Assembly: GCA_964449235.1 (NCBI GenBank)
Contig: CAYVAX010000003.1
Span: 1-51,872, forward strand
Direction of reading: 5' to 3'
DNA from: an uncultured Candidatus Saccharibacteria bacterium
GTDB lineage: Bacteria; Patescibacteriota; Minisyncoccia; RBG-13-40-8-A; JAUWHN01
Length of the DNA stretch: 51,872 nt
The translations under genes were made by a program, and so were the position numbers. Numbering within the stretch: position 1 is the stretch's first letter; every line of letters begins with the position of its first letter. Positions 11,854 through 51,872 of the stretch are shown piece by piece. The notes under the pieces are model-generated. The model searched no databases. It saw only the letters and a list, made by a program, of their open reading frames with translations, and was not told where the DNA came from.

Positions 11854-11862
11854 ATTTATATC

Positions 11863-18079: not shown

Positions 18080-18094
18080 AATATATTTTAAATC

Positions 18095-25034: not shown

Positions 25035-26447
25035 ATGAAAAAAATAATTTACTTCCTCTTAATATATCTCCTATTACTCCCCTTAACCACAAACGCAACT
25101 GTGGTTATTAATGAAATTTGTTGGATGGGTACAGAAAATTCTGCTAATGATGAATGGATTGAGCTTTATGCTGACCAACAAACAAATTTAGATGGTTGGA
25201 TTTTGGAATCGAAAGATGGAACTCCGAGTATAAGATTGGAAGGCAATATTCCTGCTCAGGGATATTTTCTTATAGAAAGAACTGATGACAATTCTGTGCC
25301 CAATATTCCTGGAGATCAAATCTATACAGGAGCGTTGTCTAATTCTGGAGAACATCTTCAACTTAAAGATAATAATCAAAATTTAATTGACGAAATTAAT
25401 TGCAGCCAGCAATGGATTGCTGGAGATAATTCCACAAAACAAACCATGGAAAGAACTGGCGATAGCTGGCAAACAAGCTTAGACCCTCACGGCACGCCTA
25501 AAGATGAAAACAGCGCCCTGCAAGAATTCGTGGAGCCTGAGCAATTTCAACGATCTGAGCAAGACAATTCTGAAGCTGAAAACCAGCCACCAATTGCCAA
25601 TGCCGGCAATGATATTGTTGGATTTGTTGATCAAATAATCATTCTTAATGCTTCTCGCTGTTATGACCCCAATAATGATCTTTTAAATTATCAATGGAAT
25701 CTAGGAGATGGAGAAATTAGCAATCAGGCAGTAACTGAACACAAATATGCTCATCCAGGAGAATTTTTGGTCTCATTAACTATTTCTGACAATTCTTATT
25801 CAGACACAGACACAATCAAAGTCAATATTTATCCTAAAGAAATAATGATCAATGAGTTTATTCCTGATCCTGAGGGAAAAGACTCCGAACAAGAATGGAT
25901 TGAGATATATAATAATCTTGATCAAGCTATTGATCTTTCTGGCTGGTTTTTAGACGATGAACCCGAGGGAAGCAACCCCTTTATGATCCCCGAAAATAGC
26001 TTAATCCCTCCAAAAGGATATTCGGTATTTTCTCGCAAAACAACAAAGATTGCTTTAAACAATGACAGTGATCAAGTAAGATTGCTCCTTCCAGACAAAA
26101 ATGTATTTCAAGAAATCAGTTATCAACAAACTGAACAAGGAAAGTCTTTGGCTAAAAGTCCGCAAGGATTTGTCTATAGCGTACCCACGCCTGGATTTTC
26201 AAATAGCAGCGGGATTGAGCAAGAAAAAATTAATTCTCAAAAAACAGCTCAATCCACCTCTGCAAATAGTCAATCTAAACAACAAAGCCCCCCTAAAAAG
26301 CTTGACTCTGAACAAAAATACTATAACCTTGCAGACTTAGAAAATTCAACTAATAGCAATAGTAAATTTATCCTTATTCTTGCAGCAATCGCAACTGCCA
26401 TATTCATTATCGGAATTTTAAAGCTTAGAAGCCGTAATAATTCTTGA
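25035..26447 (+). CDS. membrane-anchored surface protein: lamin-tail domain - PKD domain - lamin-tail domain
   Basis: 470 aa with a signal peptide. LTD signatures VVINEICWMGT..NDEWIELY and IMINEFIPDPEG..EQEWIEIYN. PKD-like PIANAGNDI...YQWNLGDGE...HKYAHPGEFLVSLTISD. C-terminal TM helix. Confidence 0.7.
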   Translation: MKKIIYFLLIYLLLLPLTTNATVVINEICWMGTENSANDEWIELYADQQTNLDGWILESKDGTPSIRLEGNIPAQGYFLIERTDDNSVPNIPGDQIYTGALSNSGEHLQLKDNNQNLIDEINCSQQWIAGDNSTKQTMERTGDSWQTSLDPHGTPKDENSALQEFVEPEQFQRSEQDNSEAENQPPIANAGNDIVGFVDQIIILNASRCYDPNNDLLNYQWNLGDGEISNQAVTEHKYAHPGEFLVSLTISDNSYSDTDTIKVNIYPKEIMINEFIPDPEGKDSEQEWIEIYNNLDQAIDLSGWFLDDEPEGSNPFMIPENSLIPPKGYSVFSRKTTKIALNNDSDQVRLLLPDKNVFQEISYQQTEQGKSLAKSPQGFVYSVPTPGFSNSSGIEQEKINSQKTAQSTSANSQSKQQSPPKKLDSEQKYYNLADLENSTNSNSKFILILAAIATAIFIIGILKLRSRNNS

Positions 26448-27490: not shown

Positions 27491-28150
27491 ATGCCTTTAA
27501 TTGTCGACTACATGACCGCTCAGGGCGTACCAGAGCTCTCTCTGGTGTTTTTTCTAATGCTTCCGGTAGTAGCAACCGTTATTAGCTTTGCCCGTCAAGT
27601 TATTGGAATTAAAGCCTTTGGTTTATACGTCCCTTTAATCATTACTTTTGCTTTTTTGGCTACTGGAATTAAATATGGAACAGTAGTCTTTTTACTTACA
27701 TTAATTGTGGGAACTGGAATGAGATTTATTTTAAGAAAAATCCGACTTTTATACTTGCCTCGGATGGCACTTACATTAATAACAATTACTATCTCGATTT
27801 ATGTCCTGTTTTTAATTGCTATCCATTTCGATAAAATTGGATTTGTCCAGGTTGCAGTATTCCCAGTGCTAATTTTGGTCATCCTCTCAGAAAAATTCAT
27901 TGCCACACAAATCCATAGAGATAACCGAGTAGCAATTATTCTAACTTTAGAAACTCTAATCCTGGCAACAATCTGCTATTATTTAATCACCTGGGTTGGT
28001 TTTCAACAATTCGCGCTTAATTACCCCTTAATTGTCATCGGAGGAGCAATTGTTATAAACTTATTGCTTGGTCGCTGGACAGGATTAAGATTAACCGAAT
28101 ATATTAGATTTAAAGAGGTTGCAAAACAGATAAAGAAAACTAAAAAATAA
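27491..28150 (+). CDS. 7-TM membrane protein of the type usually fused to an inactive transglutaminase
   Basis: 219 aa with seven hydrophobic helices by eye. The N-terminal LPVVATVISFARQVIGIKAFGLYVPLII pattern resembles the 7TM_transglut family. It is adjacent to a RimK-related ATP-grasp, as in known operons. Confidence 0.55.
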   Translation: MPLIVDYMTAQGVPELSLVFFLMLPVVATVISFARQVIGIKAFGLYVPLIITFAFLATGIKYGTVVFLLTLIVGTGMRFILRKIRLLYLPRMALTLITITISIYVLFLIAIHFDKIGFVQVAVFPVLILVILSEKFIATQIHRDNRVAIILTLETLILATICYYLITWVGFQQFALNYPLIVIGGAIVINLLLGRWTGLRLTEYIRFKEVAKQIKKTKK

Positions 28151-28154
28151 CTGC

Positions 28155-29480
28155 ATGTTCAAATCACTTAAGAACTACCAGCAGCTGTTAGGAATTAATA
28201 AGCGAAATCTAAAATATATAAAGCCCTCTAATTCCCGGAGGGCTATTCGTATTGCAGATAATAAATTGTTAAATAAGCGATTTTTAGTTAAACATTCCCT
28301 GCCAGTAGCTAAAACTTACGCTGTTATAAGCAAAAGGGCAGAATTAAACAATTTTAATTGGTCAACTTTACCAAAAAGCTTTGTATTAAAACCTAATCGC
28401 GGAATGGGCGGAGAAGGAATTTTAATTGTTTACGGTAAGATAAAGAAAAAAGACCCTAAGGATGCTCCGGTTTGGGTTCAAGCTGATCGTTCTAAAATAA
28501 CCATTCCTGATCTTGATGATTATGTTTTAAATATTTTAGATGGTAAATACTCTAGAAATCAAGTTCCAGATATTGCTATTTTCGAAGAACGGTTAAAATT
28601 ATTAAGAATGTTTAAACCTTATGCTTTCCGAGGAGTTCCTGATATTCGTATTATTGTATACAACTCTGTGCCAATTATGGCTGAATTGCGATTACCCACT
28701 AAAGAATCACAGGGAAGGTCTAATCTGCACTTAGGAGGAGTGGGAGTAGGAATTGATATGGCCACAGGATTAACTATTGCTGCTGTTTGGCATGGAAAGT
28801 TAATTAAATATCTTCCAGGAACTCGAATTTCCTTATTGGGGATAAAAATCCCTAAATGGAAAACATTATTAGAATTAGCAATTGAGTCTCAAAAAGCTAC
28901 GGGCATTGGTTTCTTAGGCGTAGATATTGGTTTAGACCGAGAAAAAGGCCCTGTAATCTTAGAATTAAATGCCCGCGCTGGCCTCTCTATTCAAGTTGCT
29001 AATTTAACTCCTCTATATTCACGACTGAAGAAAGTAGAAGGGTTGAATGTAAAATCAACAAGGCAGGCAATCCGTTTATCACAGGATTTGTTCGGTGGAC
29101 AGATAGAAGAAGAGCTGGAAGAACTTTCCGGAAGAAAAATCATTGGAATTAAAGAAAAAATACAGTTGATAGACAAGCAAGGAGAAAAATGCGAAGTAAT
29201 CGCAAAAGTGGACACAGGTGCTTATCGAACCAGCATTTGTAAATCATTAGTTAAAAAAATAGGGATTACTGACGCTATTAAGCATAAAAAAGTGAGAAGT
29301 TCTTTAGGGAAAAAGGAAAGACCGATCATTGACCTTTCCTTTCTTTTAGATAAAAAAAGAGTTTCTACAGAGGCATTTATTGCAGATCGTAGAAAAATGA
29401 AATACGATGTAATCATCGGCAGAAAAGATTTAAAAAAATTCTTAGTTGATCCTGCAAAAAATATATTAATTAAAAAATAA
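28155..29480 (+). CDS. alpha-L-glutamate-ligase-like (RimK-related) ATP-grasp fused to a RimB-type retropepsin-like domain
   Basis: 441 aa. The N-terminus LLGINKRNLKYIKPSNSRRAIRIADNKLLNK plus VLKPNRGMGGEGI and ILELNARAG match the ATP-grasp family. The C-terminal ~115 aa (from about 29130) carry KVDTGAYRTSI (DTG at 29211-29219) and VIIGRKDL. Confidence 0.7.
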   Translation: MFKSLKNYQQLLGINKRNLKYIKPSNSRRAIRIADNKLLNKRFLVKHSLPVAKTYAVISKRAELNNFNWSTLPKSFVLKPNRGMGGEGILIVYGKIKKKDPKDAPVWVQADRSKITIPDLDDYVLNILDGKYSRNQVPDIAIFEERLKLLRMFKPYAFRGVPDIRIIVYNSVPIMAELRLPTKESQGRSNLHLGGVGVGIDMATGLTIAAVWHGKLIKYLPGTRISLLGIKIPKWKTLLELAIESQKATGIGFLGVDIGLDREKGPVILELNARAGLSIQVANLTPLYSRLKKVEGLNVKSTRQAIRLSQDLFGGQIEEELEELSGRKIIGIKEKIQLIDKQGEKCEVIAKVDTGAYRTSICKSLVKKIGITDAIKHKKVRSSLGKKERPIIDLSFLLDKKRVSTEAFIADRRKMKYDVIIGRKDLKKFLVDPAKNILIKK

Positions 29481-30982
29481 TGGTTATTCAAGATTCAAAA
29501 ACATTAAAAAAATTCTTTAAGCGCAATGTCAAGTTCCCAATTTTTGGAGCAGGAGTTTATCCTTTTCATCGGTTGGGTCCGGAAGATTTTGTTTCCGATT
29601 ATCGAATCTTGACTTTAAGAAGAAGTTTGGACGGAGAGCTGATAAAAAAGGATCTAAACGTCCAAACTATTGAAAAAGGCTTAGGAAGAAAGCACATTAG
29701 AAAGCCAAGAAACGCAACCACGATTTTAAAACATCCTAAAATAAAAAAATATTTAAAGAAATTCAAGAACGTAAATATTTTAGTTTATAAGCCCTCTTCA
29801 AGAATGGAAAGGCACTGTGAAAAAAATAACTGGAATTTACTTATCCCTCGCTTTAAATTTGGTAAAAAGCTATTTGAAAATAAAATTAAATTCAGAGAAA
29901 TCTTAGAAAAAATTGATGTTCCTGCTCCTCCAGGGAAAGTTACCAGCCTGGACAAACTTCATTATGGTCATTTAATTAATAGCTACGGACTTCCCTTTGT
30001 AATCCAGCATCCAACCAAAGGAGGAGGAAAAGGAACTTTTTTTATTAACACCAAAGAAGACTTTGATAAAGCATACAAAAAATTAAAGCATCCTACCCAT
30101 CAAACTTATTTAGGCGAAAAAGAAGAAAAACCAGCACCAGAAGTAATTGTGGCCAAATTTATTGAGGGCCCATCTCCAAGTATTACCGGATGCGTTACTA
30201 AACACGGAATCTTATCTACGAATTTACAATATCAGATACTGGACATCCCCCAACTTTATAACCCCGCAAAAGGCTCGGGACTATTTTGCGGGCATGATTG
30301 GAGTTTTTCAAAATTTCCAAAAGAAATTGAAAACCAAGCTTATCGTATTGTGGAAAAAGTCGGAAACTATTTTAAACAAAACAACTACAAAGGAATTTTC
30401 GGCCTGGATTTTATAATGAACAAAGATACCAATAAACTTTACGTTACTGAAACCAATCCCCGCTTATTAGGATCATTCCCAGTATTGCCCATGGTCCAGG
30501 CTAAAAATAAAGAGCCATCAATTTTAGGATTTCATATCTTAGAGCATTTAAATATTGATTATGCTATGGATATAAAAAATATTAACGATTTAATGAGAAA
30601 ACCAAAACGAGGAGCACAGATGATTCTACACAACTTAACTGGTCGATGGACCAGAATCGGAAAAACAGTCAAGCCGGGTATTTACGAGCTTGATAGAAAT
30701 GGAAAAATAAAATTTTTGAGATCGGGTTATAAGCTTCAGCATCTTAAACGAAAAACTGAATTTTTAATAACTGGCGGAATTTTAATTAAAAAATCTCACC
30801 TTAGTCCCAACAGAAGATTATGTAGAATTTTAACCCTGGGAAAGGTTCTAGAAAATTATCAGCAATTAAATCCATGGGCGCAAACAATTGCAGAAGCAGT
30901 CTATAAAACATTTCATCTAAAACCTATAAAATTCATAAAGTTCAAAAAAATATTTGCTCCTAATTTTTTAGCAAAAGGATAA
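29480..30982 (+). CDS. ATP-grasp domain protein, unassigned specificity
   Basis: 500 aa. The central FVIQHPTKGGGKGTFFI, VIVAKFIEG and FGLDFIMNKDTNKLYVTETNPRL fit the ATP-grasp fold. The first ~150 aa are unassigned. One-nt overlap (TAATG) with the upstream gene. Confidence 0.6.
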   Translation: MVIQDSKTLKKFFKRNVKFPIFGAGVYPFHRLGPEDFVSDYRILTLRRSLDGELIKKDLNVQTIEKGLGRKHIRKPRNATTILKHPKIKKYLKKFKNVNILVYKPSSRMERHCEKNNWNLLIPRFKFGKKLFENKIKFREILEKIDVPAPPGKVTSLDKLHYGHLINSYGLPFVIQHPTKGGGKGTFFINTKEDFDKAYKKLKHPTHQTYLGEKEEKPAPEVIVAKFIEGPSPSITGCVTKHGILSTNLQYQILDIPQLYNPAKGSGLFCGHDWSFSKFPKEIENQAYRIVEKVGNYFKQNNYKGIFGLDFIMNKDTNKLYVTETNPRLLGSFPVLPMVQAKNKEPSILGFHILEHLNIDYAMDIKNINDLMRKPKRGAQMILHNLTGRWTRIGKTVKPGIYELDRNGKIKFLRSGYKLQHLKRKTEFLITGGILIKKSHLSPNRRLCRILTLGKVLENYQQLNPWAQTIAEAVYKTFHLKPIKFIKFKKIFAPNFLAKG

Positions 30983-32007
30983 TGATCTACTTTATCAATA
31001 ACCCCAAACAGCCAATATCTTTAGAAGACATCTACGATCATCGAAATATCTATTTACTAGCAAAATCTGCTTTAGAGAAAAAAATTAACTGTGAGCTCTT
31101 GTTACGACCAAGAAAAAACCAGCGTGATATTATATTTTTACGATTTGCAAAAAGTAAAAACAAAAAATGGTTTGGATGTGAACAAGGGTTTTTTAATTCT
31201 AAAGCAAGCTGCGACTTTTGTTTATATAAATATCTGACGAATGATTTATTAAAAATATTAAAATTCCCTCTTCCTCAGTCTCAAAAAATCAAAAACATTA
31301 AGCAGTTAAACAATCTTCCAATTAACCCTCCCTGGGTAGTAAAACCATCTTCTGGCACTCAGGGAAAAGATGTTATTGTGAAAATAGAAAAATATATTAA
31401 TCTTAAAAAAACTTGCAATAAACTTTTATTAAAATATCCCAGTTTAATAGTTGAAAAATTTATCCCAGGAAATGATTATAGATTAATGGTTCTCGAAAAT
31501 AAGTTTTTAGCAGCAATAAAAAGAGTGCCTCCATCTATTAAAGGAGATGGTAAGCACAGTTTAAGAGAACTTATAAATATTACCAATAAGAAAAGAGGGA
31601 AGCTTAAGAAAAAAGACACCCCTTATTTAAAACCAATAAAAATTGACTGGGAATTAAAACATACTCTTAAAAAACAAGAATTATTTTTAAAATCAATCAG
31701 CCCTGAAAATAAAAAAATAAAACTAAGAGAAAACGCTAATTTCTCCAGCGGAGGAACAGTTATAGATGTAACTCATAAAGTACATCCTGAAAACAAAAAA
31801 ATAGCCCTGAAAGCAATACATGCTTTAGGACTAAAAATTGGAGGAGTGGATATAATTTTAAAAGATATTAGCAGGCCAATAACTAAAACTAATGGAAAAA
31901 TAATCGAAGTAAACAGTTCTCCTGGCTTATGGCCACATCACTTTCCGAATTATGGTAAAAGCCAGCCAGTAGCCAAAGAAATCATTAATTATTTATTCAG
32001 TAAATAA
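30982..32007 (+). CDS. stand-alone ATP-grasp ligase resembling the cyanophycin synthetase G domain
   Basis: 341 aa. WVVKPSSGTQGKDV, VEKFIPGNDYRLMVLENKFLAAIKRVP, LRENANFSSGGTVIDVTHKVHPEN and GLKIGGVDIILKDISRP..GKIIEVNSSPG are colinear with the CphA ATP-grasp region as remembered. No Mur-ligase-like M domain. Confidence 0.75.
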   Translation: MIYFINNPKQPISLEDIYDHRNIYLLAKSALEKKINCELLLRPRKNQRDIIFLRFAKSKNKKWFGCEQGFFNSKASCDFCLYKYLTNDLLKILKFPLPQSQKIKNIKQLNNLPINPPWVVKPSSGTQGKDVIVKIEKYINLKKTCNKLLLKYPSLIVEKFIPGNDYRLMVLENKFLAAIKRVPPSIKGDGKHSLRELINITNKKRGKLKKKDTPYLKPIKIDWELKHTLKKQELFLKSISPENKKIKLRENANFSSGGTVIDVTHKVHPENKKIALKAIHALGLKIGGVDIILKDISRPITKTNGKIIEVNSSPGLWPHHFPNYGKSQPVAKEIINYLFSK

Positions 32008-43993: not shown

Positions 43994-44015
43994 AAACAAT
44001 TACATGAATTAATTT

Positions 44016-44042
44016 AAAAACCCTCTTTTTCAGAGGGTTTTT
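44016..44042. terminator. bidirectional intrinsic terminator between convergent genes
   Basis: AAAAACCCUCU, loop UUUUC, AGAGGGUUUUU. A and U runs lie on both sides. Confidence 0.8.
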
Positions 44043-44065
44043 AAAATACAATGTTTTTAAATATC

Positions 44066-45244
44066 TTATAGCTCAATACTGTATAGCAGTCCATCCTGTT
44101 TGTTTATAAAGAAGAGGTAATCTTCTAATGGCGAAAGAAATAAATTTACAGCATCATAAGTTTCAGCTGCATCTTTTTCCCAGGGTTCTAACAGAATAGT
44201 TTTTTCTCCAGTTTCCAAGTTTATTTTCCAAAACTCATCATCGCTTACAAACGTTCCTTTATAAAAATCGTCGGGCAAAATATTTGCCTGATCTATATTT
44301 TTAGAAACAGCGCAGAAAACAGTACGATTATCTTGAGACCAGACACATTTTTCTGCAAATCCAGACATTGCCAAGCTAGTTTCATTGCTCCCGTTTTTTA
44401 GGGCTACATATAAACTGATACTATCTCCTCCTTTATTAGTTTTAGAATAAAGAAGCTTATCCCCCTGAGGAGACCATTTTACACTTAACCCATAAACGCC
44501 GGATAAAACCTTAGCAAGGCTTTTAGTCAAGGGATTAACTAAGAAAAAGGAGCTTTCAGTCAAGCCAGAAGGCTTTTCATAAAATGCTATTCCAGAAGGA
44601 GTCCAGTCTAAATTTACATTCTTCATTCTAACGTCTAAAATGTTTTGCCAGTTACTCCCATCAGGATTAGCAATGCTGATATTATTAGCATCACTATTAT
44701 CGTTAGTATATTGATAAGCAATCCTAGTTCCGTCTGGAGACCAAGCAATACTCTTGATGTGATCCCCAAAAGAAAATGTCTCTTTGCTGCTATAATCATA
44801 TATCTGTTTTTTCACAGCCCCTTGATTGTTTTGAGTAATAGTTATTACTTTACTTTTATCCGGAGACCAGATAATATCTTTTAGATTTTGAAGGTTAATT
44901 TCCGTTCTTAGAGTTAAACCTGAACCGTCAAAAGATGATTGCCAGACATTCCCGTTATACTGGCTGTAGTAAACGACTTTTGTTTGGTCAGCAGATAAAG
45001 TTGGTCCCAGTACTTTTTCCGTGCTAATAGCATTAAGTTTTAATTCTGGACTGGGAGCAGAAGTCTTCTCTTCTTGGCCGGGTTCAAATTCTCCTTGCTC
45101 GCCTTCGGGAAATTTTCCTTCTTTTCCTTCTTCCCCTTCTTTTCCCTGATGTTTGAAAATAAAATTGTAAACCAGCAAAGAGATTAATCCCAGAATAAGG
45201 ATGATTATTAAAATTATTAAGATTTTTTTAAGATAAGTGTTCAT
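44066..45244 (-). CDS. membrane-anchored TolB-like (PD40/WD40-like) beta-propeller protein
   Basis: 392 aa. N-terminal TM helix and a G/E/K-rich linker. Repeated WSPDKSKV, WSPDGTRIAY, WTPSG, WSPQGDKLLY and WSQDNRTVF blades. Confidence 0.65.
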   Translation of the reverse strand: MNTYLKKILIILIIILILGLISLLVYNFIFKHQGKEGEEGKEGKFPEGEQGEFEPGQEEKTSAPSPELKLNAISTEKVLGPTLSADQTKVVYYSQYNGNVWQSSFDGSGLTLRTEINLQNLKDIIWSPDKSKVITITQNNQGAVKKQIYDYSSKETFSFGDHIKSIAWSPDGTRIAYQYTNDNSDANNISIANPDGSNWQNILDVRMKNVNLDWTPSGIAFYEKPSGLTESSFFLVNPLTKSLAKVLSGVYGLSVKWSPQGDKLLYSKTNKGGDSISLYVALKNGSNETSLAMSGFAEKCVWSQDNRTVFCAVSKNIDQANILPDDFYKGTFVSDDEFWKINLETGEKTILLEPWEKDAAETYDAVNLFLSPLEDYLFFINKQDGLLYSIEL

Positions 45245-45264
45245 GTATAATAGTGATTAATATA

Positions 45265-45654
45265 TTACCAGGGCAAAGTTATCCCTAACTTTAATAAATC
45301 CGGGTTGATATAATGGAGGATTAGCCAGCTTCCCAGCAACAACAACAGCCCCAATAAAGCAGAAGTAATTCGTTCTTTTGCCTGAGCTGCTTTTTGCGGA
45401 TTCCCAGTAGCTGTAACTAGCTCAAATCCAGCAATGATCATTGCTAAAAATCCAGTTATACCTACAATTCCCAGGGAGAATATAAAGATGTATTTGATGA
45501 ATTGCGGCAATCCAAAGTCTTCATCTCCAGGCTTGCAATCTCCATGTTCGCAAGCAGGCAATTCTGGATAATCTTCAATTATGGTTTCATAAGCCTGAGC
45601 AGAGAAACCAACAAACAGGAGAAATAAAATGGTTATTATTAAAATCTTTTTCAT
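45265..45654 (-). CDS. T4SS pilin-like (VirB2/TrbC-type) small membrane protein
   Basis: 129 aa. A signal peptide, then two TM helices joined by the loop TATGNPQKAAQAKERI. This is the pattern of the pilin family common next to VirB4 in CPR and Gram-positive systems. Confidence 0.55.
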   Translation of the reverse strand: MKKILIITILFLLFVGFSAQAYETIIEDYPELPACEHGDCKPGDEDFGLPQFIKYIFIFSLGIVGITGFLAMIIAGFELVTATGNPQKAAQAKERITSALLGLLLLLGSWLILHYINPDLLKLGITLPW

Positions 45655-45665
45655 GTATATAGTTA

Positions 45666-46451
45666 TTAGTATATTTCTATATTTATCACTTTTTGAATTC
45701 GCTGATCCCGCTCTTGTTTATTAGTCGCACTCACTTTTAATTTTTCTTTAAGTGTTCCTTCTACCTCCTTATTAACAATCTTTAAGCCAAAAATATTTGC
45801 AGTTAAGGAAGATTCTTCAACTGATTTTTCTCCTAAGCTCCATTCAAATTCTAAATCTCGGACACTGTTAATATTAAAGAAGTATGGAATAGCTGAAAAA
45901 GAAAACTCTTTTTCAGATTGAACTTTAAAACTTTTAGCAGAAGCAAAGTATGGCAAATTAACTTCGGAATTATCTCGTTTGTAAATTACTAGTTCGGGAG
46001 CAGTAACTGGAATAGACATTGACCTTTCCAGATAAAATGAACGGCTTTCATTGAATATTTTTACAAGCACATCATGGGAAGCATGATTTCCTCTGCGAAT
46101 GTAGAATTGCAAGCGGTCTTGGCCGTATCCAGACTTAGCTTCTTGAAAAACATCATCTAAAAACCAGCTATATTTTAAGTTTTGAGAGTTTCCGCCAGTA
46201 ATATCTAGGTCCACTTCCACGATTATAGAGCTTCCTTTAACCGGCAATGCCCTCCCCTGATAGCCAAAGGGGACATAACTGTCTGCTGACCAATAGAGAT
46301 CAACACTATTTAAAGTAATATTTTCTTCACTGTCACTGGGATCTTGATAAATAGTTTCTTCAATAAGCGGGACACTCCCTAGTTGGCTCCAAAGAGCCAA
46401 AGGGACGGACAGGAAAAAGAAAATTGTAGTAATAAAAGCTATTTTCCTCAT
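45666..46451 (-). CDS. secreted hypothetical protein (two beta-rich repeats)
   Basis: 261 aa with a signal peptide. An internal repeat is hinted by YSWFLDD... and FEWSLGEK.... No family recognised. Confidence 0.45.
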   Translation of the reverse strand: MRKIAFITTIFFFLSVPLALWSQLGSVPLIEETIYQDPSDSEENITLNSVDLYWSADSYVPFGYQGRALPVKGSSIIVEVDLDITGGNSQNLKYSWFLDDVFQEAKSGYGQDRLQFYIRRGNHASHDVLVKIFNESRSFYLERSMSIPVTAPELVIYKRDNSEVNLPYFASAKSFKVQSEKEFSFSAIPYFFNINSVRDLEFEWSLGEKSVEESSLTANIFGLKIVNKEVEGTLKEKLKVSATNKQERDQRIQKVINIEIY

Positions 46452-46918
46452 TTTTTAAGTTTGCTTAATTTTTTAGTAATTCCTTTTTTTCGCACCTTCT
46501 TAGCTCCGTGAGCAATAGCGGCGCGACCAATTTTTTTTCTTCTCAGCCAGAGGTAGATGATATAAAGGGTCCAAAATCCAATCATTCCTATTGGAGAAAG
46601 CTCGCCAATAAAGGCAGCAAACAACACATACACAGGATCTCTTCGGGGATTAGGCAATTGCTGAAGTTTAATCTCGATAAATGCCCAAAGCCCCAGGAGC
46701 ATTGGAATATCAACAATGCGGGCAATAATTGCTCCAAAGCCAGTTAAGTCTAATAAGTCTACAATATCAACAATAATTGCAGCTAAAAGAACAATAATCC
46801 ACTCTGCTGTATTTATATTAAACTCTCTTTCTTTTGGCTTCGGAGCTGAACCCTTTTTTTTCTTATCCAAATTTCTTGCCTGGTTGAGTTCACTTTCAAA
46901 TTTCGTTTCTTTATTCAT
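46448..46918 (-). CDS. small polytopic membrane protein, hypothetical
   Basis: The ORF track starts at 47020. I prefer ATG 46918 (MNKETKFESE), which overlaps the VirB4 stop by 8 nt. That gives 156 aa with 3-4 TM helices and a basic tail. Confidence 0.45.
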   Translation of the reverse strand: MNKETKFESELNQARNLDKKKKGSAPKPKEREFNINTAEWIIVLLAAIIVDIVDLLDLTGFGAIIARIVDIPMLLGLWAFIEIKLQQLPNPRRDPVYVLFAAFIGELSPIGMIGFWTLYIIYLWLRRKKIGRAAIAHGAKKVRKKGITKKLSKLKK

Positions 46919-48728
46919 GATTATTACTTTCAGCTTTAGCGAATTCTTGTTTAGCTTTTTCAATTTCAAGTAATTGTTCAGGGTTGGAAGTAATAATTTG
47001 GTCTTCAGTATAGGAAGCAACTACTTTAATAGCAACATGCTTAAGTCCGGCAAAAAAGATTCCTTCTCCTACTTCTGATTCTAATAATAAATATTTTTCT
47101 TCATCAGTTAAATTAAAAGTTTTTTTAACAACATCAATAGTTGCCGGCGATTGTTTAAATAATACTTGCATGGAAGAATTAGTAACAATCGGCTTTCCAT
47201 AAGGAGATTGCATAAAATCAGGGATATCTTGGGTAATTGTAGTTAGGCCTAAATAATATTTTCGGCAGCGTTTGGCAATTCCGTGAAGAAAAGAAGCTCC
47301 AGATTCATATTTCATTAACCACCAGGCTTCGTCAACGATCAATAAGCGTTTTTTAAGTTCAGAGCGGATCAGGTTCCAGATATAATGGAGGATTAAATAC
47401 ATTGCTACTGGTCGCAATTCTTCTTCCATGTCTCTAATACTGAACACCACCAATTTCTTGCCTGTAATATCAATATTTGTAGGCCTGTTAAGAAATCCTG
47501 AAAAACTTCCTTCAGTATACTTGCCTAGCTTCTTAGCCATTGATTCTCCTCCCTCCATTCCTTCTAAAATTGTTTTCAAGTCTGAAAGCAAAGGAGGGGT
47601 AACCTTGCTGAAATCAGCATCAGGAGTAATATCCCGGGAAGCATAAGTTTCAGTTAGGGCTTTGTCTAAAATGGATTCTTCTTCAGCAGTTAATTCTCCA
47701 AAAATAATTTTTAAGAGTCCAGTAAGCTCAATAATGTTTCCGCGCAAAATATCTTCAGGAGACTCTTCTGGGCCGGGCCTAGTTAAGTCAAAGGGGTTAA
47801 TATGGTCAGGAGAGTTTAAAGATATTTTAAAATGTCCTCCGCCAACTGTTTCTGATAAATATTGGTATTCATTTTCAGGATCAATAGCAATTACATCTGT
47901 TCCAAACATTAATGAGCGAAGAATTTCTACTTTTTGAAAATAGCTTTTACCTGAGCCAGCTTTTCCAAAAACACAACAATTAGCATTTTCTAAAGAAAAT
48001 CTATCAAACAAAATTAAGCTGTTGTTATGACGATTAATTCCGTAAAGAATCCCCTTATTAGAACTTAAGCTCGAAGAGACAAACGGAAAAGAAGTAGAAA
48101 GAGGAGCGGAATTCATAGAGTTGGTGACAAACAGTTTATCTTCTCCTAGTGGAAAAGTGGAACTTAGGCCGTCGGCTTGCTGGAAAAGAGCTACTTTTGT
48201 ATTAATCATTCGAGCGTCAAGCATGGAAGTAATTTCATCTTCTGTTTCATCAACTTCTTTAAGGGATTCTCCATAGATTGTGATATATAAAGAGTATTTG
48301 AAAAATTTTTCTGTTCCCTGGATTAATTTGTCTCGCAGGGACTCAATATCATTACGCGCAGTTTCCAGCATTGGATTTCGCACTTTCCCTTTTTCCTGCT
48401 CTACAGCAATTTGAGATTCAATTTGAGTAAGCTTTTTCTTTAATTTTTTTAATAATGCTCCTGTATCTGTAGGATGAATGAACATTGAAATATCTACAGA
48501 TTTAGGGAAATTAATAATCGGGCTTAACCAATTAACATTAAGATAACGCGGATAATTGACAATGAATAAAGTGCGAGCAAATTTCTTTCCTAGTTGTATG
48601 TTATTTGAAGAAATTTTAAGAGCAGAAGGAGCAATAACATTGTGCAATCCTGCTGGGCCAGTAGTTATTTGAGCTTCTTCAACATTTTCTAATTTGGAGT
48701 TATTTTTTTTATGTTTTGACAAAGGCAT
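46911..48728 (-). CDS. VirB4/TraE-type conjugation/secretion ATPase (lacking the first ~200 aa of full-length homologues)
   Basis: 605 aa. IAPSALKISSNNIQLGKKFARTLFIVNYPRYLNVNWLSPII is typical of Gram-positive VirB4. Walker A GKAGSGKSY, Walker B LLIVDEAWW. Confidence 0.85.
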   Translation of the reverse strand: MPLSKHKKNNSKLENVEEAQITTGPAGLHNVIAPSALKISSNNIQLGKKFARTLFIVNYPRYLNVNWLSPIINFPKSVDISMFIHPTDTGALLKKLKKKLTQIESQIAVEQEKGKVRNPMLETARNDIESLRDKLIQGTEKFFKYSLYITIYGESLKEVDETEDEITSMLDARMINTKVALFQQADGLSSTFPLGEDKLFVTNSMNSAPLSTSFPFVSSSLSSNKGILYGINRHNNSLILFDRFSLENANCCVFGKAGSGKSYFQKVEILRSLMFGTDVIAIDPENEYQYLSETVGGGHFKISLNSPDHINPFDLTRPGPEESPEDILRGNIIELTGLLKIIFGELTAEEESILDKALTETYASRDITPDADFSKVTPPLLSDLKTILEGMEGGESMAKKLGKYTEGSFSGFLNRPTNIDITGKKLVVFSIRDMEEELRPVAMYLILHYIWNLIRSELKKRLLIVDEAWWLMKYESGASFLHGIAKRCRKYYLGLTTITQDIPDFMQSPYGKPIVTNSSMQVLFKQSPATIDVVKKTFNLTDEEKYLLLESEVGEGIFFAGLKHVAIKVVASYTEDQIITSNPEQLLEIEKAKQEFAKAESNNHE

Positions 48729-48733
48729 AAAAT

Positions 48734-49363
48734 TTAATTGCTGGGGTTATAGAATTCGTAAAATAATCGAGTTATCTGTTTGTTATTTAAAAGAGTAGTT
48801 TTAATTCCCAAGCTTTTCAATCCCGTACTTACATGACTTACTCTTTGCATTAACTGGTCTTTGTATTGCTTGAATTTTTCTTGAGAAATTCCGGGTTCAG
48901 TTTTTTTAGACTTTATTAACGGTTGAATAACTTGCTTGATTTTGTCAGTAATTTTTTCCTGTTTAATTCCCGTAGGATTATATGAAAGGACGATATAAAA
49001 AGATTTATTCATAATATCTGTAAGCTCAACAAAGCGTTCAATAAAGTCAATATATTCCAAAGTTTGAGCGTGAAGAAGTTCGTTTTCCTGAACTTTAGCT
49101 AATTGCCGGATTTGCTCTAGATAACTGTCAATGTTTAATGCCCGGGAACTAACTAAAATTTGAATTGGAAAATCCAAAGAGTTAAGAAAACTCTGAAAAC
49201 GGCCGATAATTGCTTTTTGCTCATCAGCACTTTTAAGTTCGAAATTAACACTGGAAGCAATGCTTATTGCTTTTAAGCCGCCATTTTTTAAAATAGCGAT
49301 ATTATCTTTAATTTCTTTAACTTCAACAAATTTTTGACTGGGAGTAACAGATTTAATATCCAT
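48734..49363 (-). CDS. protein resembling the extreme N-terminal region of Gram-positive-type VirB4
   Basis: 209 aa. VEVKEIKDNIAILKNGGLKAISIASSVNFELKSADEQKAIIGRFQSFLNSLDFPIQILV resembles the N-terminus of Tn916 Orf16/ConE-like VirB4 proteins as remembered. It ends 5 nt before the ATPase ORF. Confidence 0.45.
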   Translation of the reverse strand: MDIKSVTPSQKFVEVKEIKDNIAILKNGGLKAISIASSVNFELKSADEQKAIIGRFQSFLNSLDFPIQILVSSRALNIDSYLEQIRQLAKVQENELLHAQTLEYIDFIERFVELTDIMNKSFYIVLSYNPTGIKQEKITDKIKQVIQPLIKSKKTEPGISQEKFKQYKDQLMQRVSHVSTGLKSLGIKTTLLNNKQITRLFYEFYNPSN

Positions 49364-49380
49364 AAGTAATATTTATTTGA

Positions 49381-49788
49381 TTATAGCCCTGTTTTCCATT
49401 GAACTTCTTCGAGCTCATTTGCCTTGGGGGCCTTTTCTGCAGATTCTGATTTTTCTGGCTCTGCCTTTTTAATTATTTGAGGTATTGGTTCCTGCTCAGG
49501 TGTTTTAGGACGTTTCTTTTTCCAGGCGTAAACATTGGGCTTGGTTATAAATCCAAAAACATTAAGAATCATTTGTCCAAATGATTGGTGATTTACTCTA
49601 TAAAAAGCAATTAAAACAGTGATTAAAGCAACTGGAATTGCTACTAAGATAAATACAGCTGTTTTTAAAATTTCAAAGAGGATAAAAAGGATTACTCCCC
49701 CAATAAGCAAAACAATGAATTGTTTTAAAGTAAAAGGGCCAATAACCTTATCTTTAATATCCAAATATTGTGGAACCTGAAATTGCAT
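49381..49788 (-). CDS. PrgI/VirB3-like two-TM protein
   Basis: 135 aa. MQFQVPQYLDIKDKVIGPFTLKQFIVLLIGGVILF followed by a second TM helix. It sits in the classical position upstream of VirB4. Confidence 0.55.
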   Translation of the reverse strand: MQFQVPQYLDIKDKVIGPFTLKQFIVLLIGGVILFILFEILKTAVFILVAIPVALITVLIAFYRVNHQSFGQMILNVFGFITKPNVYAWKKKRPKTPEQEPIPQIIKKAEPEKSESAEKAPKANELEEVQWKTGL

Positions 49789-49811
49789 TATCTATTGTCT
49801 TTTTTAAATAA

Positions 49812-50927
49812 TTATTCTTTATCTGACAAATCAATTACATTGTCCTTGCGAGTTTTTGGCTTTGGTGCTTCAGGAATAGGCCTTTTCTTTGCTTTCTCAA
49901 TGTCCTCTTTCATTGTTCTTATTTCATGAGGGGGGATTTTAGCTGTTTTAGGCTTGGCCTCGGGTTCAGGTTCAGGTGCAGGTTTTTGTTTAGGTTGTGA
50001 TTTTTTAACGGGCTCGGTTTTAATCTTTTCTTTTTTAGGCAAAGAAGGGTGAAGCTCTCGTTCTTTCTCATATGGAGATATTTTTTTTCTCCAGGGAGAA
50101 AAGAAATCCGGTTTTTCTTTGTTTGTTTTTGATTTTTTTTCTGGAATCTCTTTTTCTTTTTTTTGCTCTTCTTTTTCTTTCTCCTTTTTTTTAGTTATTT
50201 CCTCTAATTTCTTTTGATCCTTTTTCTTTTCTTGCCTGGCCGGAAGCTTTATTTTTTTCTTTCCCTCCTCTTCAGGCAAAGGCACTCCCAGGCCTTTAAA
50301 ATATTCTTTTAAACTGACTTCGCTTACATTCAAATATGGCAATGGAGGGCTGATTTTTATGTAATCATAAAAGGTCAATAAAGAAGAAAGAAATCTTTTT
50401 TCTTTTTCATCAATATCTGCTGAGCTTTTGCTGATGAATTTAGTTCTTTCAAGGCTGCTGTTTTTTCTTGCTCCGAATTGGTTGTCATAATCATTAAGCC
50501 ATTGGCTGACTGTTTTTTTATCGATTTTTTCCTGGTTTTCTTTAAGGCGGGTAATAACTTCTCTTCGGAATTGATCCCAGGTGAATACAGATTTAACTGC
50601 TAAATAATCCTTTGTTTTTTGTTCAACATCTATTCCTTTTTTAAGTGCTTTTAAATAATGGCTTTGGATTAATTGTAATAACTGTTCGTCAGTTAAATAG
50701 GGAATAGCAGTGAATTTTAATTGTGCAATAATTCTTTGATATTGCTTATATATCTCCGGAGAAGAATCAATTAAACTTCGAGTTTGCCGTTCTATTTTTT
50801 TAACCAAACTCCAAGCAGAAGACATTTGATTATGAATAGCAATGTCATTAGCGATTGCCTTAATTTTTTCCAATATCCCCGAATCGCTTAATTGCTCGGA
50901 AGTTAATTGTGCGATTTTGATAGTCAT
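49812..50927 (-). CDS. hypothetical protein with K/E/P-rich low-complexity C-terminal half
   Basis: 371 aa. An N-terminal ~220-aa globular part is followed by KKKDQKKLEEITKKKEKEKEEQKKEKE...PAPEPEPEAKPK. No family recognised. Confidence 0.45.
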   Translation of the reverse strand: MTIKIAQLTSEQLSDSGILEKIKAIANDIAIHNQMSSAWSLVKKIERQTRSLIDSSPEIYKQYQRIIAQLKFTAIPYLTDEQLLQLIQSHYLKALKKGIDVEQKTKDYLAVKSVFTWDQFRREVITRLKENQEKIDKKTVSQWLNDYDNQFGARKNSSLERTKFISKSSADIDEKEKRFLSSLLTFYDYIKISPPLPYLNVSEVSLKEYFKGLGVPLPEEEGKKKIKLPARQEKKKDQKKLEEITKKKEKEKEEQKKEKEIPEKKSKTNKEKPDFFSPWRKKISPYEKERELHPSLPKKEKIKTEPVKKSQPKQKPAPEPEPEAKPKTAKIPPHEIRTMKEDIEKAKKRPIPEAPKPKTRKDNVIDLSDKE

Positions 50928-50948
50928 TTTTAATTAAGTTATTTAAGT

Positions 50949-51872
50949 TTAACCAAATTCTCCTGGTTTGTGTTTTTTTCTGGATTCTTTAAATTCTTTT
51001 TCGCTGGGCTCGGTTATGACCTTAGTTTCTGATTTACCTCCCCCTTTGCCAGTAAGAGATTTTTTAATTTCTCCAATCCATTGTTGAGCAATATTTGCCT
51101 GTCCAGGATCCTTACCCCTCACTTCATCAATTGCTTGTTGAATTTGATTTTCTCCTTCAATGAGGCGTTTTTTGTTAAACGTAGACATGTTTTCTACTAC
51201 CTGCTTAACATCTTCTCTTTCTAAGTTTTGAAGGATTGTTTTAAAGGAATTAGACACTTGCACTGGCTTGCCATTACGTTCATTAAAGAAAATTCGAGGA
51301 TGCATTGTTTTCCATCTTGCTTCCGGGCTAGTCTTCATTATTTTCTCTCCTCCTTTTTCCCCAAGCCTAGACTCTAAAGTCCAATTCATCATTTTTTTCT
51401 GAGGGTCATAACTTACCAAGTCACTGTATTGAGGAAGCCCAGCAGCCTTAGCAGCGTTTCCAAATCTGGCTGCAAAACTAATTGCCTCTTTTTCGTCGGA
51501 AATGGAGTTTTTAATAAATTGTTGTGCAGCTTTCGGGCTGGTCTCGTGTTTGTATTTTGCTCCCAATTCTGTATCTTCAAAGATCCCGTTCTCGTCAGCT
51601 CGAGATGCTAATTCTAGCATCCCGGCTTTAAGTTTGTCCATATTATTTGATTTTCGAGCAGCTTTTACTTGATCAACTAAAGCATCTTTGCCAAGATCCT
51701 GCTTTCTTAAATTTGACCTTTCTTTATCAACGGCAAAATCATGAGCGCGTTGCTCATAAAAAGTTTTATCTTTTCCCAAGCTTAGATATTTATTGAACCT
51801 ATCCCGCCAAGCACCAATAGCAGGTTCGTAAGCTTTTCGTTCTTTTTCTTCCCTTCTTTGTTTCCAGGCCTG
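50949..51872 (-). CDS. hypothetical protein, 5'-partial (runs off the window)
   Basis: The ORF track begins at TTG 51779. The frame stays open upstream to position 51872 (QAWKQRREEKERKAYEPAIGAWRDRFNKYLS...), so the true start is probably outside the window. No family recognised. Confidence 0.45.
   Translation of the reverse strand, partial: QAWKQRREEKERKAYEPAIGAWRDRFNKYLSLGKDKTFYEQRAHDFAVDKERSNLRKQDLGKDALVDQVKAARKSNNMDKLKAGMLELASRADENGIFEDTELGAKYKHETSPKAAQQFIKNSISDEKEAISFAARFGNAAKAAGLPQYSDLVSYDPQKKMMNWTLESRLGEKGGEKIMKTSPEARWKTMHPRIFFNERNGKPVQVSNSFKTILQNLEREDVKQVVENMSTFNKKRLIEGENQIQQAIDEVRGKDPGQANIAQQWIGEIKKSLTGKGGGKSETKVITEPSEKEFKESRKKHKPGEFG

Follow-up and report, generated by a model that had tools for sequence, protein, structure and literature searches.

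What a cluster of VirB4-like secretion or pilus genes represents, when it stands without any gene for DNA transfer, is the question raised by positions 44066-51872 of the 51,872-nt stretch of DNA analysed here (the window). The analyses indicated, with a probability of about 0.78, that these positions hold the downstream two-thirds of a chromosomal Patescibacteria-type T4SS locus in its Parcubacteria/Paceibacteria form, vertically inherited and derived from monoderm (MPF-FATA) conjugation machinery through the loss of its DNA-processing partners. As to function, we infer a VirB4-driven pilus or conduit for host contact.

The ORF analysis placed all nine co-directional minus-strand genes where the initial annotation had put them (Table 1), with spacers between successive genes of 21, 23, 17, 5, -8, -4, 11, and 20 nt, the 8-nt overlap being that of the family H start with the virB4 stop. 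The cluster has a GC content of 0.352, compared to 0.330 for the remaining window. The bidirectional terminator proposed at 44016-44042 was also recovered, as a slightly longer hairpin that folded strongly on both strands (-16.8 and -18.3 kcal/mol; z -6.8 and -6.3), and none of 200 shuffles was as stable; a simple terminator scan did not report it because the scan prolongs the stem into the A/T runs. This hairpin is common to the T4SS cluster and a convergent Wzy_C gene. The remaining window consists of housekeeping genes, including dnaA, dnaN, rnpA, yidC, jag, PBP1, TyrRS, RuvABC, and PolA, and no relaxase, T4CP, or integrase was found in the window, which covers only about 52 kb of the genome. 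These observations agree with the initial opinion that the cluster is not a conjugative element. A PilB-like ATPase at 20722-22407 indicates that type IV pilus machinery is also encoded.

Table 1. Features of the T4SS cluster and its terminator, in the order of transcription.
Feature	Position	Strand	Size	Characteristics
Family C, 3' part	50949..51872	-	307 codons	C-terminal hydrophilic domain; the polytopic channel protein is TrbL/VirB6-like and "extended"
Family D	49812..50927	-	371 aa	No TM helix or signal peptide; N-terminal domain of ~210 aa and K/E/P-rich tail
PrgI/VirB3-like small membrane protein (E)	49381..49788	-		Two adjacent TM helices
TrsD-type protein (F)	48734..49363	-	209 aa	VirB4 N-terminal domain as a separate gene
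VirB4 ATPase (G)	46911..48728	-	605 aa	C-terminal and motor part; profiles and Walker motifs
Family H	46448..46918	-	156 aa	Small polytopic membrane protein; hydrophobic segments
Family I	45666..46451	-	261 aa	N-terminal hydrophobic helix (signal peptide/anchor), disordered linker, two predicted tandem Ig/FN3-like beta-sandwich domains
VirB2-like T4SS pilin (J)	45265..45654	-	129 aa	Minimal form; signal peptide, two hydrophobic helices, basic loop between them
Family K	44066..45244	-	392 aa	N-terminal TM anchor, E/G/K-rich linker, TolB/PD40-type beta-propeller
Intrinsic-terminator hairpin, bidirectional	44013..44045	.		14-bp stem between A and T runs

Profile searches bore out the pilin, PrgI, and VirB4 assignments, all of which passed curated thresholds. 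The pilin matched T4SS_pilin (Pfam PF18895; 34.4 bits, cutoff 26.6), and the alignment with relatives revealed that it ends directly past a conserved INPDL motif. The pilins of relatives, of 120 to 646 aa in total, often extend past the second membrane helix as a variable Cys-rich C-terminal domain, which would sit on the pilus surface. The PrgI protein matched PF12666 (39.6 bits, cutoff 27) and was present in all 74 relatives with enough flank. The VirB4 ATPase matched P-loop_TraG (93 bits), AAA_10, and DUF87 in Pfam and, in NCBIfam, conju_CD1110 (353 bits, cutoff 325), of which it covers only profile positions 177-733 of 752; its Walker A (GKAGSGKS, residue 255) and Walker B (LLIVDE, residue 462) motifs are both intact. 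The CD1110 family is named for a family of conjugal transfer ATPases. The best 120 database matches listed for VirB4 were 66-92% identical and all named ones among them were Patescibacteria; plasmid-borne relatives reached at most 36%, and the nearest of these lie on Firmicutes/Actinobacteria replicons, most of them typed as conjugative. The separate VirB4-N-terminal-like ORF that had been proposed proved to be of the TrsD type, with a precomputed Pfam match (PF26593, TraC-like) and sub-cutoff NCBIfam matches to CD1110 (positions 23-128) and to the TrsD model (24 bits, cutoff 200). A separate ORF of ~210 aa occurred in 75 of 77 relatives, and the split of VirB4 is thus conserved and not a frameshift.

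The absence of a VirB6-sized channel protein, as initially stated, did not hold. The 5'-partial ORF, open to the window edge, aligned end to end with residues 401-713 of a 713-aa protein of the closest relative (L089; 58% identity, E 1e-127), which carries a precomputed TrbL match (PF04610), and with residues 392-660 of the family C protein of another relative, L003, at 33% identity. A third orthologue (L005) matched TrbL at 26.0 bits (cutoff 25.9) and the CD3337/EF1877 mobilome membrane protein family (E 7.7e-5). The orthologues have seven TM helices in their N-terminal part, and family C was present in all 56 relatives with enough flank. These alignments identify the ORF as the C-terminal tail of a TrbL/VirB6-like channel protein of ~713 aa, cut by the contig end, where the N-terminal ~400 residues with the TM domain are lost; the window appears to be the entire contig, the longest one with this VirB4 measuring 51,872 bp. 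Since a VirB6-like protein is present, the description of the cluster as minimal or stripped-down was overstated, the conserved locus comprising 11 genes.

Family D is K/E/P-rich, as had been noticed: these residues make up 58% of its last 161 positions, and the tail closes with a short conserved motif. Neither this protein nor 34 family members matched a Pfam or NCBIfam family, and homology to other proteins was not detectable; of the 70 relatives whose flank sufficed, 46 have an orthologue. The protein evolves fast, its identity to the L003 orthologue being 48%, compared to 88% for VirB4 of the same pair.

Among the proteins encoded downstream of virB4, family H had no Pfam, NCBIfam, or PDB match and no detectable homology to anything, was unrelated to the pilin or PrgI families according to hhalign, and was detected in 57 of 80 relatives. 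Family I likewise lacked a Pfam or NCBIfam family, and all of its homologues (110 of 110) were unnamed or "hypothetical". Its AlphaFold2 model (mean pLDDT 85.8, pTM 0.73), compared with the PDB by Foldseek, resembled generic tandem Ig/FN3 proteins such as Hoc, PECAM-1, SGBP-B, RbmA, and NCAM. The model thereby predicts a surface-exposed tandem Ig-like protein, an assignment added by the present analysis. Family K, which occurred in 60 of the 65 relatives whose flank was long enough, conformed to the membrane-anchored TolB-like propeller proposed earlier, with a TM helix at residues 8-26, a match to the TIGR02800 TolB propeller (E 1e-11, far under the equivalog cutoff) and weak Pfam matches to PD40, DPPIV_N, and Peptidase_S9_N; a peptidase domain was absent.

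The comparison with 82 distinct related Parcubacteria/Paceibacteria loci, from species-representative genomes and metagenome contigs, revealed one gene order: A (TSP3 protein), B (DUF4141 protein), C (VirB6-like), D, PrgI, TrsD, VirB4, H, I, pilin, and K. This order is kept in relatives labelled Portnoy-, Azam-, Giovannoni-, Yanofsky-, Sungi-, Zambryski-, and Terrybacteria, and, where the flank was sufficient, A occurred in 43 of 45 and B in 41 of 48 relatives. The locus is recurrently flanked by rsmA-lnt and, at its opposite end, by wzy/flippase-jag-yidC-rnpA-dnaA-dnaN. In four relatives, whose VirB4 shares 70-92% identity with the present one, the region just beyond the window end, where the initial annotation had considered that transfer genes might lie and had expected the cluster to continue, holds three more cluster genes followed by Lnt, RsmA, and UvrD, and no relaxase, coupling protein, or integrase was present in the annotated flanks of these four. 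VirB4 was 57-92% identical across relatives, with the identities of neighbouring proteins dropping in step. Compared to L003, VirB4 was 88% and the neighbouring proteins 33-70% identical, which is the pattern of a system long resident in the genome whose accessory parts evolve fast. Six accessory families are specific to the lineage of the present locus, which is a further addition of this analysis.

The cluster is thus a further copy of the chromosomal, non-conjugative T4SS/pilus locus that adjoins the replication origin in most ultrasmall Patescibacteria (CPR). The initial call was correct but not new, because the system was described in 2023-2025, and it has ceased to be an unexamined curiosity. 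The survey of T4SS across 3,035 Patescibacteria genomes by Quinonero-Coronel et al. (2025, Microb Genom; PMC12102498) defined a Patescibacteria VirB4 clade with TrsD, PrgI, VirB6, and PF18895 pilins, no relaxase and a position near dnaA, reported the Paceibacteria locus close to dnaA, dnaN, rnpA, and ksgA, and detected, in most Patescibacteria, T4CP homologues at sites distant from virB4. A VirD4-type coupling protein may likewise be encoded elsewhere in the present genome. The present copy shares with this clade the VirB4, the separate TrsD-type N-domain protein, PrgI/VirB3, VirB6/TrbL, the VirB2-like PF18895 pilin, the chromosomal site near the same genes, and the lack of relaxase and T4CP at the locus, without essential difference. 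In Southlakia epibionticum, a Saccharibacterium, Tn-seq showed that the T4SS and pilins are essential for epibiotic growth (Wang et al., 2023, Cell; PMC10633639). Tubular structures that may be T4SS pili were described at a parasite-host interface (bioRxiv 10.64898/2026.06.21.733656). The S. epibionticum locus has a 6-gene pilin array, compared to one minimal pilin here, and an NTF2-like protein in Table S2 (PMC10633639). H, I, pilin, and K follow virB4 here, whereas a peptidase and a lysozyme are found in the Patescibacteria clade (PMC12102498); the accessory families D, H, I, and K, and the upstream A and B, are not named in that paper, the text of which has zero mention of TolB, PD40, or propeller.

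Among other systems, those of the MPF-FATA type (pCF10 Prg/Pcf, pGO1 Trs, C. difficile CTn elements) share the VirB6-VirB3-VirB4 order, a CD1110-family VirB4, and a monoderm architecture without outer-membrane core proteins, and pGO1 also the TrsD-like protein. Unlike them, the present locus lacks a relaxase, T4CP, VirB8-like (NTF2) protein, and VirB1-like hydrolase, has a VirB2-like pilin, and is chromosomally fixed rather than carried by a mobile element, and its VirB4 stays at or below the 36% identity to plasmid-borne homologues given above. The PrgI, TrsD, and VirB4 proteins map in order on VirB4_plasma, the NCBIfam model of the Mycoplasma ICE VirB3-VirB4 fusion (Mbov_0397), at positions 28-117, 104-253, and 280-893, and the pilin reaches 39.8 bits on the Mbov_0395 pilin-like model (cutoff 40); a pilin-like gene beside VirB4 therefore exists also in another wall-less/monoderm lineage. 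The three segments are, however, separate genes here, the scores lie under the equivalog cutoffs, and the Mycoplasma system belongs to a mobile ICE. The present analysis also adds a similar core, likewise relaxase-less and pilin-bearing, on the 898-kb replicon NZ_CP062975.1 of Pontibacillus sp. ALD_SL1 (Bacillota), with, in this order, two pilin-like genes, an 8-TM VirB6-like, a PrgI-like and a TrsD-like gene, and a VirB4 of 36% identity; its genes match the family HMMs (E 1e-19, 2e-20, 7e-13, 4e-14, and 1.6e-49). The annotation shows neither a relaxase nor a T4CP up to 9 kb to each side of this core, and the typing of the replicon is non-mobilizable. It differs in a 1050-aa M23 peptidoglycan endopeptidase after virB4, in the lack of families A, B, D, H, I, and K, and in its chemotaxis and flagellar gene flanks. 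T4SSs that are non-conjugative and T4CP-less include H. pylori ComB (DNA uptake), archaeal Ced (import), and Bordetella Ptl (toxin export). They set a precedent for VirB4-driven machines that need neither relaxase nor coupling protein and either import DNA or export proteins delivered by Sec (PMC12857230), but their accessory components are unrelated to the present locus, ComB and Ptl are diderm with VirB7/9/10 cores, and the CedB model is only weak on the present VirB4 (53 bits, 700-bit NCBIfam cutoff).

A dedicated import machine like ComB or Ced, in which the T4SS channel would take in DNA, RNA, or nucleotides of the host, is a tentative alternative, on the doubtful side. Nucleotide synthesis is missing from these genomes, and an import function would explain why relaxase and coupling protein are absent at the locus. 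This hypothesis is favoured in PMC12102498, and an RNA-feeding lifestyle was noted alongside VirB4 monophyly (bioRxiv 10.64898/2026.06.21.733656). The remote likeness to CedB speaks against it, as does the lack of a recognised DNA-binding or nuclease component in the locus. The T4SS of S. epibionticum is essential, whereas its DNA uptake by way of comEC is dispensable (PMC12857230), which would still allow import. It is unlikely that the locus encodes a T4CP-independent exporter like Ptl, releasing or injecting into the host proteins such as the Sec-exported A, B, or I or the disordered D. Wang et al. (PMC10633639) proposed protein export as an option, several operon products have signal peptides or anchors, and the much faster divergence of D and the VirB6 C-terminal domain than of the motor is often a host-interaction pattern; yet none of the operon proteins showed an effector-like enzymatic domain, the joint conservation of A, B, I, and K resembles that of structural parts, and a recognisable secretion signal is missing from D. 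Less probable again is a pure adhesion filament, in which VirB4 would only build a VirB2-type pilus for attachment, without transport. The pilin score above the family threshold, the Cys-rich domains of relatives' pilins, and the likeness of the tandem-Ig and propeller proteins to adhesin modules would suit such a filament. Type IV pili, however, are the known adhesion organelle in Saccharibacteria and their machinery is present in this genome too, and translocation is suggested by the VirB6-type channel protein, which the locus has kept and which bears a large additional domain. Finally, a decayed integrated conjugative element or plasmid remnant, its relaxase, T4CP, and integrase lost or just outside the window, is already largely refuted and hardly credible, for the name of the CD1110 family and the conjugative typing of most replicons with the nearest plasmid-borne VirB4 stand against nine intact, tightly coupled ORFs, one and the same 11-gene order at the same oriC-adjacent chromosomal site in 82 loci, flanks (lnt, rsmA, uvrD / dnaA) without transfer genes, a GC content that matches the host genome, and identities that fall in step as expected for a resident system.

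For the resident Patescibacteria-type T4SS, the VirB6-like C, PrgI/VirB3 (E), and the two-piece VirB4 (F and G) would form the membrane translocon and motor, and VirB4 would pull the Sec-inserted VirB2-like pilin (J) out of the membrane and assemble it as a polymer, either a pilus or a tube. Gram-positive systems have wall-spanning VirB8/VirB1 parts, which may be replaced here by the envelope proteins H, I with its tandem Ig domains, and K with its anchored propeller, and by the secreted A and B encoded upstream; no VirB8-like or VirB1-like component was identified at the locus, and this envelope role is therefore proposed from location, topology, and co-conservation only. The bacterium is presumably epibiotic, and the resulting structure would touch its host cell and may act as an attachment organelle and/or a relaxase-free conduit for macromolecules.

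The ORF listing reproduced the nine co-directional minus-strand genes recorded in the initial annotation, with spacers between successive genes of 21, 23, 17, 5, -8, -4, 11, and 20 nt and the most upstream ORF open to the window edge. The cluster ends in a hairpin that it shares with a convergent Wzy_C gene. This hairpin was absent from the consensus terminator scan list, but direct folding showed that it is real and, as had been proposed, bidirectional, since it folds on both strands (-16.8 and -18.3 kcal/mol, z ~ -6.5). The GC content of the cluster was 0.352 as compared to 0.330 elsewhere in the window. Eight of the cluster genes have their 5' end inside the window (44066-50927); no recognisable Shine-Dalgarno motif was found in the 20 nt before their start codons, and their leaders are A/T-rich.

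Positions of the type IV secretion cluster, of other genes in the window and of features in related loci (letters denote gene families of the conserved locus)
Feature	Location	Strand	Product or remark
Gene cluster	44066-51872	minus	nine genes
C	50949-51872	minus	VirB6-like, 5'-partial
D	49812-50927	minus	K/E/P-rich, 371 aa
E	49381-49788	minus	PrgI/VirB3
F	48734-49363	minus	TrsD-type, 209 aa
G	46911-48728	minus	VirB4
H	46448-46918	minus
I	45666-46451	minus	261 aa
J	45265-45654	minus	VirB2-like pilin, 129 aa
K	44066-45244	minus	propeller protein
Hairpin at cluster end	~44013-44045		44016-44042 in the initial annotation
dnaA	37966-39351		4.7 kb from cluster
RtcB-archease region	1386-4215
RtcB RNA ligase	1386-2822
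LAGLIDADG_3 ORF	2819-3616		265 aa
Archease	3808-4215
Octopine_DH-like dehydrogenase, then 1244-aa ORF	7055-11772
DNA polymerase I, two ORFs	16751-18982
Family A polymerase domain	16751-18079
5'-3' exonuclease	18095-18982
PilB/GspE-type ATPase	20722-22407		T2SSE + MshEN
RuvB with intein	22657-24981
PKD + lamin-tail-domain protein	25035-26447
7TM_transglut protein, then three ATP-grasp enzymes	27491-32007
Family J pilin, related locus L003	13010-13837
Family J pilin, related locus L005	13032-13865
Family B, L003	2755-5754
Family B, related locus L077	3173-4300
Pontibacillus locus	NZ_CP062975.1 347328-367109		genes at locus positions 4474-14027

Pfam and NCBIfam searches upheld the reading of three of these genes as a PrgI/VirB3-like protein, a VirB4-N-terminal-like ORF and the VirB4 ATPase. 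The VirB4 protein matched P-loop_TraG, AAA_10, and DUF87 in Pfam and scored 353 bits against the NCBIfam model conju_CD1110 (equivalog cutoff 325), in keeping with an MPF-FATA affinity, covering only profile positions 177-733; both Walker motifs, A (GKAGSGKS) and B (LLIVDE), are preserved intact. The part missing at its N-terminus is supplied by ORF F, which aligns to positions 23-128 of CD1110 and 104-253 of VirB4_plasma, also matches TrsD and belongs to the precomputed family PF26593 (TraC-like); 75 of 77 relatives likewise encode it as an ORF of its own. Protein E matched PrgI (PF12666, 39.6 bits against a cutoff of 27) and aligned to positions 28-117 of VirB4_plasma, a Mycoplasma VirB3-VirB4 fusion model. 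This mapping of profile positions indicates that E, F, and G together represent VirB3 plus a VirB4 in two pieces. Against the CedB model, VirB4 reached 53 bits (cutoff 700 bits), far under its CD1110 score, and thus is not assigned to the archaeal Ced-type ATPases.

The pilin assignment of J was likewise supported, as the protein passed the cutoff of T4SS_pilin PF18895 (34.4 against 26.6 bits); with the Mycoplasma-ICE "Mbov_0395 pilin-like" model it scored 39.8 bits, where the cutoff is 40. Its topology comprises a signal peptide and two hydrophobic helices (hydrophobic segments 4-22, 56-74, and 96-114), joined by the basic loop GNPQKAAQAKER. Members of this family range from 120 to 646 aa among the relatives, and in most of them a conserved INPDL motif is followed by a variable, Cys-rich extension at the C-terminus; the window holds a minimal form, although pilins of 275-277 aa are encoded in its close relatives L003 and L005. 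Because the extension comes after the second membrane helix, it would lie on the pilus surface.

The initial annotation had described the cluster as minimal and had seen no VirB6-sized channel protein; the second statement was wrong, and the first is not upheld. In four relatives sharing the neighbourhood (VirB4 92, 88, 83, and 70% identical to that of the window), the gene upstream of D encodes a 660-756-aa protein with seven N-terminal transmembrane (TM) helices and a TrbL/VirB6 match in Pfam (26.0 bits in L005, cutoff 25.9); a further match of this protein is to the CD3337/EF1877 mobilome membrane family. The 5'-partial ORF of the window represents the C-terminal 307 residues of this protein, aligning end-to-end with residues 401-713 of the TrbL-positive, 713-aa VirB6-like protein of the closest relative (58% identity, E 1e-127). 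It was thus the end of the contig that made VirB6 seem to be lacking. Farther upstream of this gene, the relatives encode a secreted protein of ~950-1000 aa (family B) and a TSP3-repeat protein of ~335 aa (family A), followed by Lnt, RsmA, and UvrD, in line with the expectation that the cluster continues beyond the window. The window is apparently a complete contig, since 51,872 bp is also the length of the longest contig with this VirB4. Regarding the strain itself, only two short Logan contigs carry the exact VirB4 protein and both lie inside the window, the exact protein D has no database record, and a 36-nt pattern taken from the end of the window had no exact match in JGI metagenomes.

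Scanning one genome per GTDB species yielded 80 loci, whose labels include Portnoy-, Azam-, Giovannoni-, Yanofsky-, Sungi-, Zambryski-, and Terrybacteria; with iterative HMMs for each gene family, nearly all of them showed the order A-B-C-D-E-F-G-H-I-J-K. Presence was counted in 82 non-redundant loci, for each family in those with enough flank. The core families were found in 74/74 (E), 75/77 (F), 56/56 (C), and 60/73 (J) loci, and the accessory families in 43/45 (A), 41/48 (B), 60/65 (K), 57/80 (H), 54/77 (I), and 46/70 (D); some orthologues of H, I, and D were probably missed owing to the strong divergence of these three families. Identity to L003 was 88% for VirB4, 70% for the pilin, 67% for K, 63% for F and I, 55% for E, 48% for D, 37% for H, and 33% for the VirB6 C-domain. 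The best 120 VirB4 matches listed were 66-92% identical, every named one from Patescibacteria; identity in the 80 loci was 57-83%, which leaves a gap between at least 57% in Patescibacteria loci and at most 36% in plasmid homologues. By this gap, the window protein would probably fall within the monophyletic Patescibacteria VirB4 clade.

In the plasmid collection, the best relative of the window VirB4 is 36% identical and is encoded by a non-mobilizable 898-kb replicon from Pontibacillus sp. (Bacillota). The locus there has the order pilin, pilin, VirB6-like, PrgI-like, TrsD-like, VirB4 (CD1110), M23 endopeptidase; the Patescibacteria family HMMs match all of its core genes, genes for chemotaxis and flagella lie on its flanks, and no relaxase or type IV coupling protein (T4CP) was found within 9 kb. 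From this gene content, a pilin-bearing, relaxase-less module also occurs in Bacillota. The locus may belong to a sister or donor lineage of the module, and it bears on the origin of the Patescibacteria system and its pilin.

Among the accessory proteins, K was confirmed as a membrane-anchored TolB-like beta-propeller, in which an E/G/K-rich linker connects the TM anchor to a propeller of the TolB/PD40 type. Protein I had 110 homologues, all unnamed. Its AlphaFold2 model from 65 homologues (pLDDT 85.8) showed two beta-sandwich domains that follow an N-terminal helix and a disordered linker, and its Foldseek matches were generic tandem Ig/FN3 proteins only, so that the model predicts a surface Ig-like protein. 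A VirB8-like or VirB5-like identity of I was ruled out, since the confident model contains two Ig/FN3-like sandwiches and not an NTF2 fold; a VirB9-like identity lacks support because the top 50 Foldseek matches contained no VirB9 structure. Proteins H and D gave no match in Pfam, NCBIfam, or PDB sequences (Pfam scan of all members of both families). Comparisons among the ten accessory families with hhalign (e.g., H with the pilin or PrgI) returned only overlaps of TM segments and signal peptides and showed no kinship of H or D with another family in the locus, and profile searches of I, H, and B against PDB sequences returned only weak Ig-like or coiled-coil noise.

Family B consists of conserved secreted proteins of 370-1000 aa with invariant cysteines and a coiled-coil region (L003, L077, and others). 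It directly precedes the VirB6-like gene in 41 of 48 loci, a position that resembles virB5-virB6 and trbJ-trbL. Many members match DUF4141, some of them above its cutoff (up to 33.7 bits, cutoff 30), over the first ~35 residues only, the same part that weakly matches TrbJ (E 1.3e-3). AlphaFold2 predicted an all-alpha structure of low quality (pLDDT 64), which gave no Foldseek match to a VirB5/TrbJ-like protein, a hydrolase or any other fold, and for this reason B is regarded only as a candidate VirB5-like tip protein.

These components suggest a membrane machine formed by the VirB6-like protein, the VirB3-like protein E and the split VirB4 (F+G), in which VirB4 would pull pilin J from the membrane and polymerise it. 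The envelope-spanning part would be built or decorated by H, I, K, A, and B, and the organelle would mediate host contact and possibly transfer of macromolecules in either direction. Within such a scheme, the sequence data accord alike with dedicated nucleic-acid import, with Ptl-like protein export and with a pure adhesion pilus. Profiles for VirB8-like (NTF2-fold; PrgL/TcpC/TraM) proteins and VirB1-like hydrolases (PrgK/TrsG/CD419) matched no cluster protein. In Parcubacteria/Paceibacteria, the lineage-specific proteins K, I, H, B (possibly VirB5-like), and A could have taken the place of the module with which Gram-positive T4SSs span the wall (VirB8/VirB1). Together with the VirB2-like pilin, often with a variable C-terminal domain on the presumed pilus surface, this would represent a previously undescribed monoderm pilus-bearing T4SS architecture, in which the fast-evolving, signal-less, K/E/P-rich D could be a substrate or adaptor; we consider this proposal as a whole rather unlikely.

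All 44 window ORFs of at least 100 aa were scanned, and no relaxase, T4CP, or integrase was found among them; those outside the cluster are all housekeeping genes. A relaxase and a VirD4/TcpA-type coupling protein were also absent from the annotated 10-kb flanks of the four relatives, whose upstream flanks contain housekeeping genes. On the downstream side, the window and the relatives alike carry Wzy_C, flippase, Jag, YidC, RnpA, DnaA, and DnaN, and in relatives of many candidate phyla the locus is fixed between rsmA/lnt and the jag-yidC-rnpA-dnaA block. This fixed position speaks against a mobile element, for which an integrase, att sites and a patchy distribution would be expected. The view that the cluster is not a conjugative element and has no transfer genes nearby stands, and an ICE remnant is essentially excluded by the missing transfer genes and the fixed chromosomal site. 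The operon is resident and passed on vertically, as opposed to a mobile element in decay.

Further genes of the window were noted. The PilB/GspE-type ATPase indicates that a separate type IV pilus machinery is present, and a protein with PKD and lamin-tail domains is encoded near it. RuvB contains an intein with a LAGLIDADG homing-endonuclease domain (Intein_splicing and LAGLIDADG_3 between RuvB_N segments). The LAGLIDADG_3 ORF between rtcB and archease shares 4 nt at its end with the start of rtcB; it might encode a free-standing homing endonuclease or be a remnant. DNA polymerase I is divided into two ORFs, in which no 3'-5' exonuclease domain was detected. One of the three ATP-grasp enzymes that follow the 7TM_transglut membrane protein has a Zn_protease domain, and this cluster may be a peptide-ligation or modification system. 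The 1244-aa ORF matches PF13941 "MutL" (not the mismatch-repair MutL) in its C-terminal half only, and its N-terminal ~700 residues have no family assignment.

A survey of 3,035 Patescibacteria genomes (Quinonero-Coronel et al., 2025; PMC12102498) recovered 2,425 VirB4 proteins, which group as a clade within MPF-FATA and usually occur alongside TrsD, PrgI/VirB3, VirB6, and PF18895-type VirB2-like pilins. Most of those loci have no relaxase, T4CP homologues are mostly far away, and in Paceibacteria and Microgenomatia the locus lies near dnaA, dnaN, rnpA, ksgA, and rpmH (PMC12102498). The window locus agrees exactly with this system in components and setting, and hence the finding correctly identifies a system that was known before; the locus type is already described, the novelty is low, and no new principle is added. 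The first interpretation was thus largely right apart from the VirB6 claim and the "minimal" label. The propeller is not mentioned in that survey (PMC12102498), and families H, I, K, D, A, and B are presumably the unannotated genes of its synteny figure. The residual interest of the locus, a clean Paceibacteria-type example, lies in these uncharacterised accessory proteins, which provide a defined list of six co-conserved partner families for structural and genetic work.

To our knowledge, no T4SS other than that of Patescibacteria has been shown to be essential for the organism that carries it. In Southlakia epibionticum, Tn-seq showed that a homologous locus, including the pilins, is essential for growth on the host (Wang et al., 2023; PMC10633639), a requirement known only for strain ML1 of this species. 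A 2025 FEMS review considers a possible pilus-forming conduit and calls the system "perhaps the most exciting newcomer" to the T4SS superfamily (PMC12857230), and a 2026 preprint reports tubular structures at the parasite-host interface that may be T4SS pili (bioRxiv 10.64898/2026.06.21.733656). This class of system is probably central to host exploitation by ultrasmall episymbiotic bacteria.
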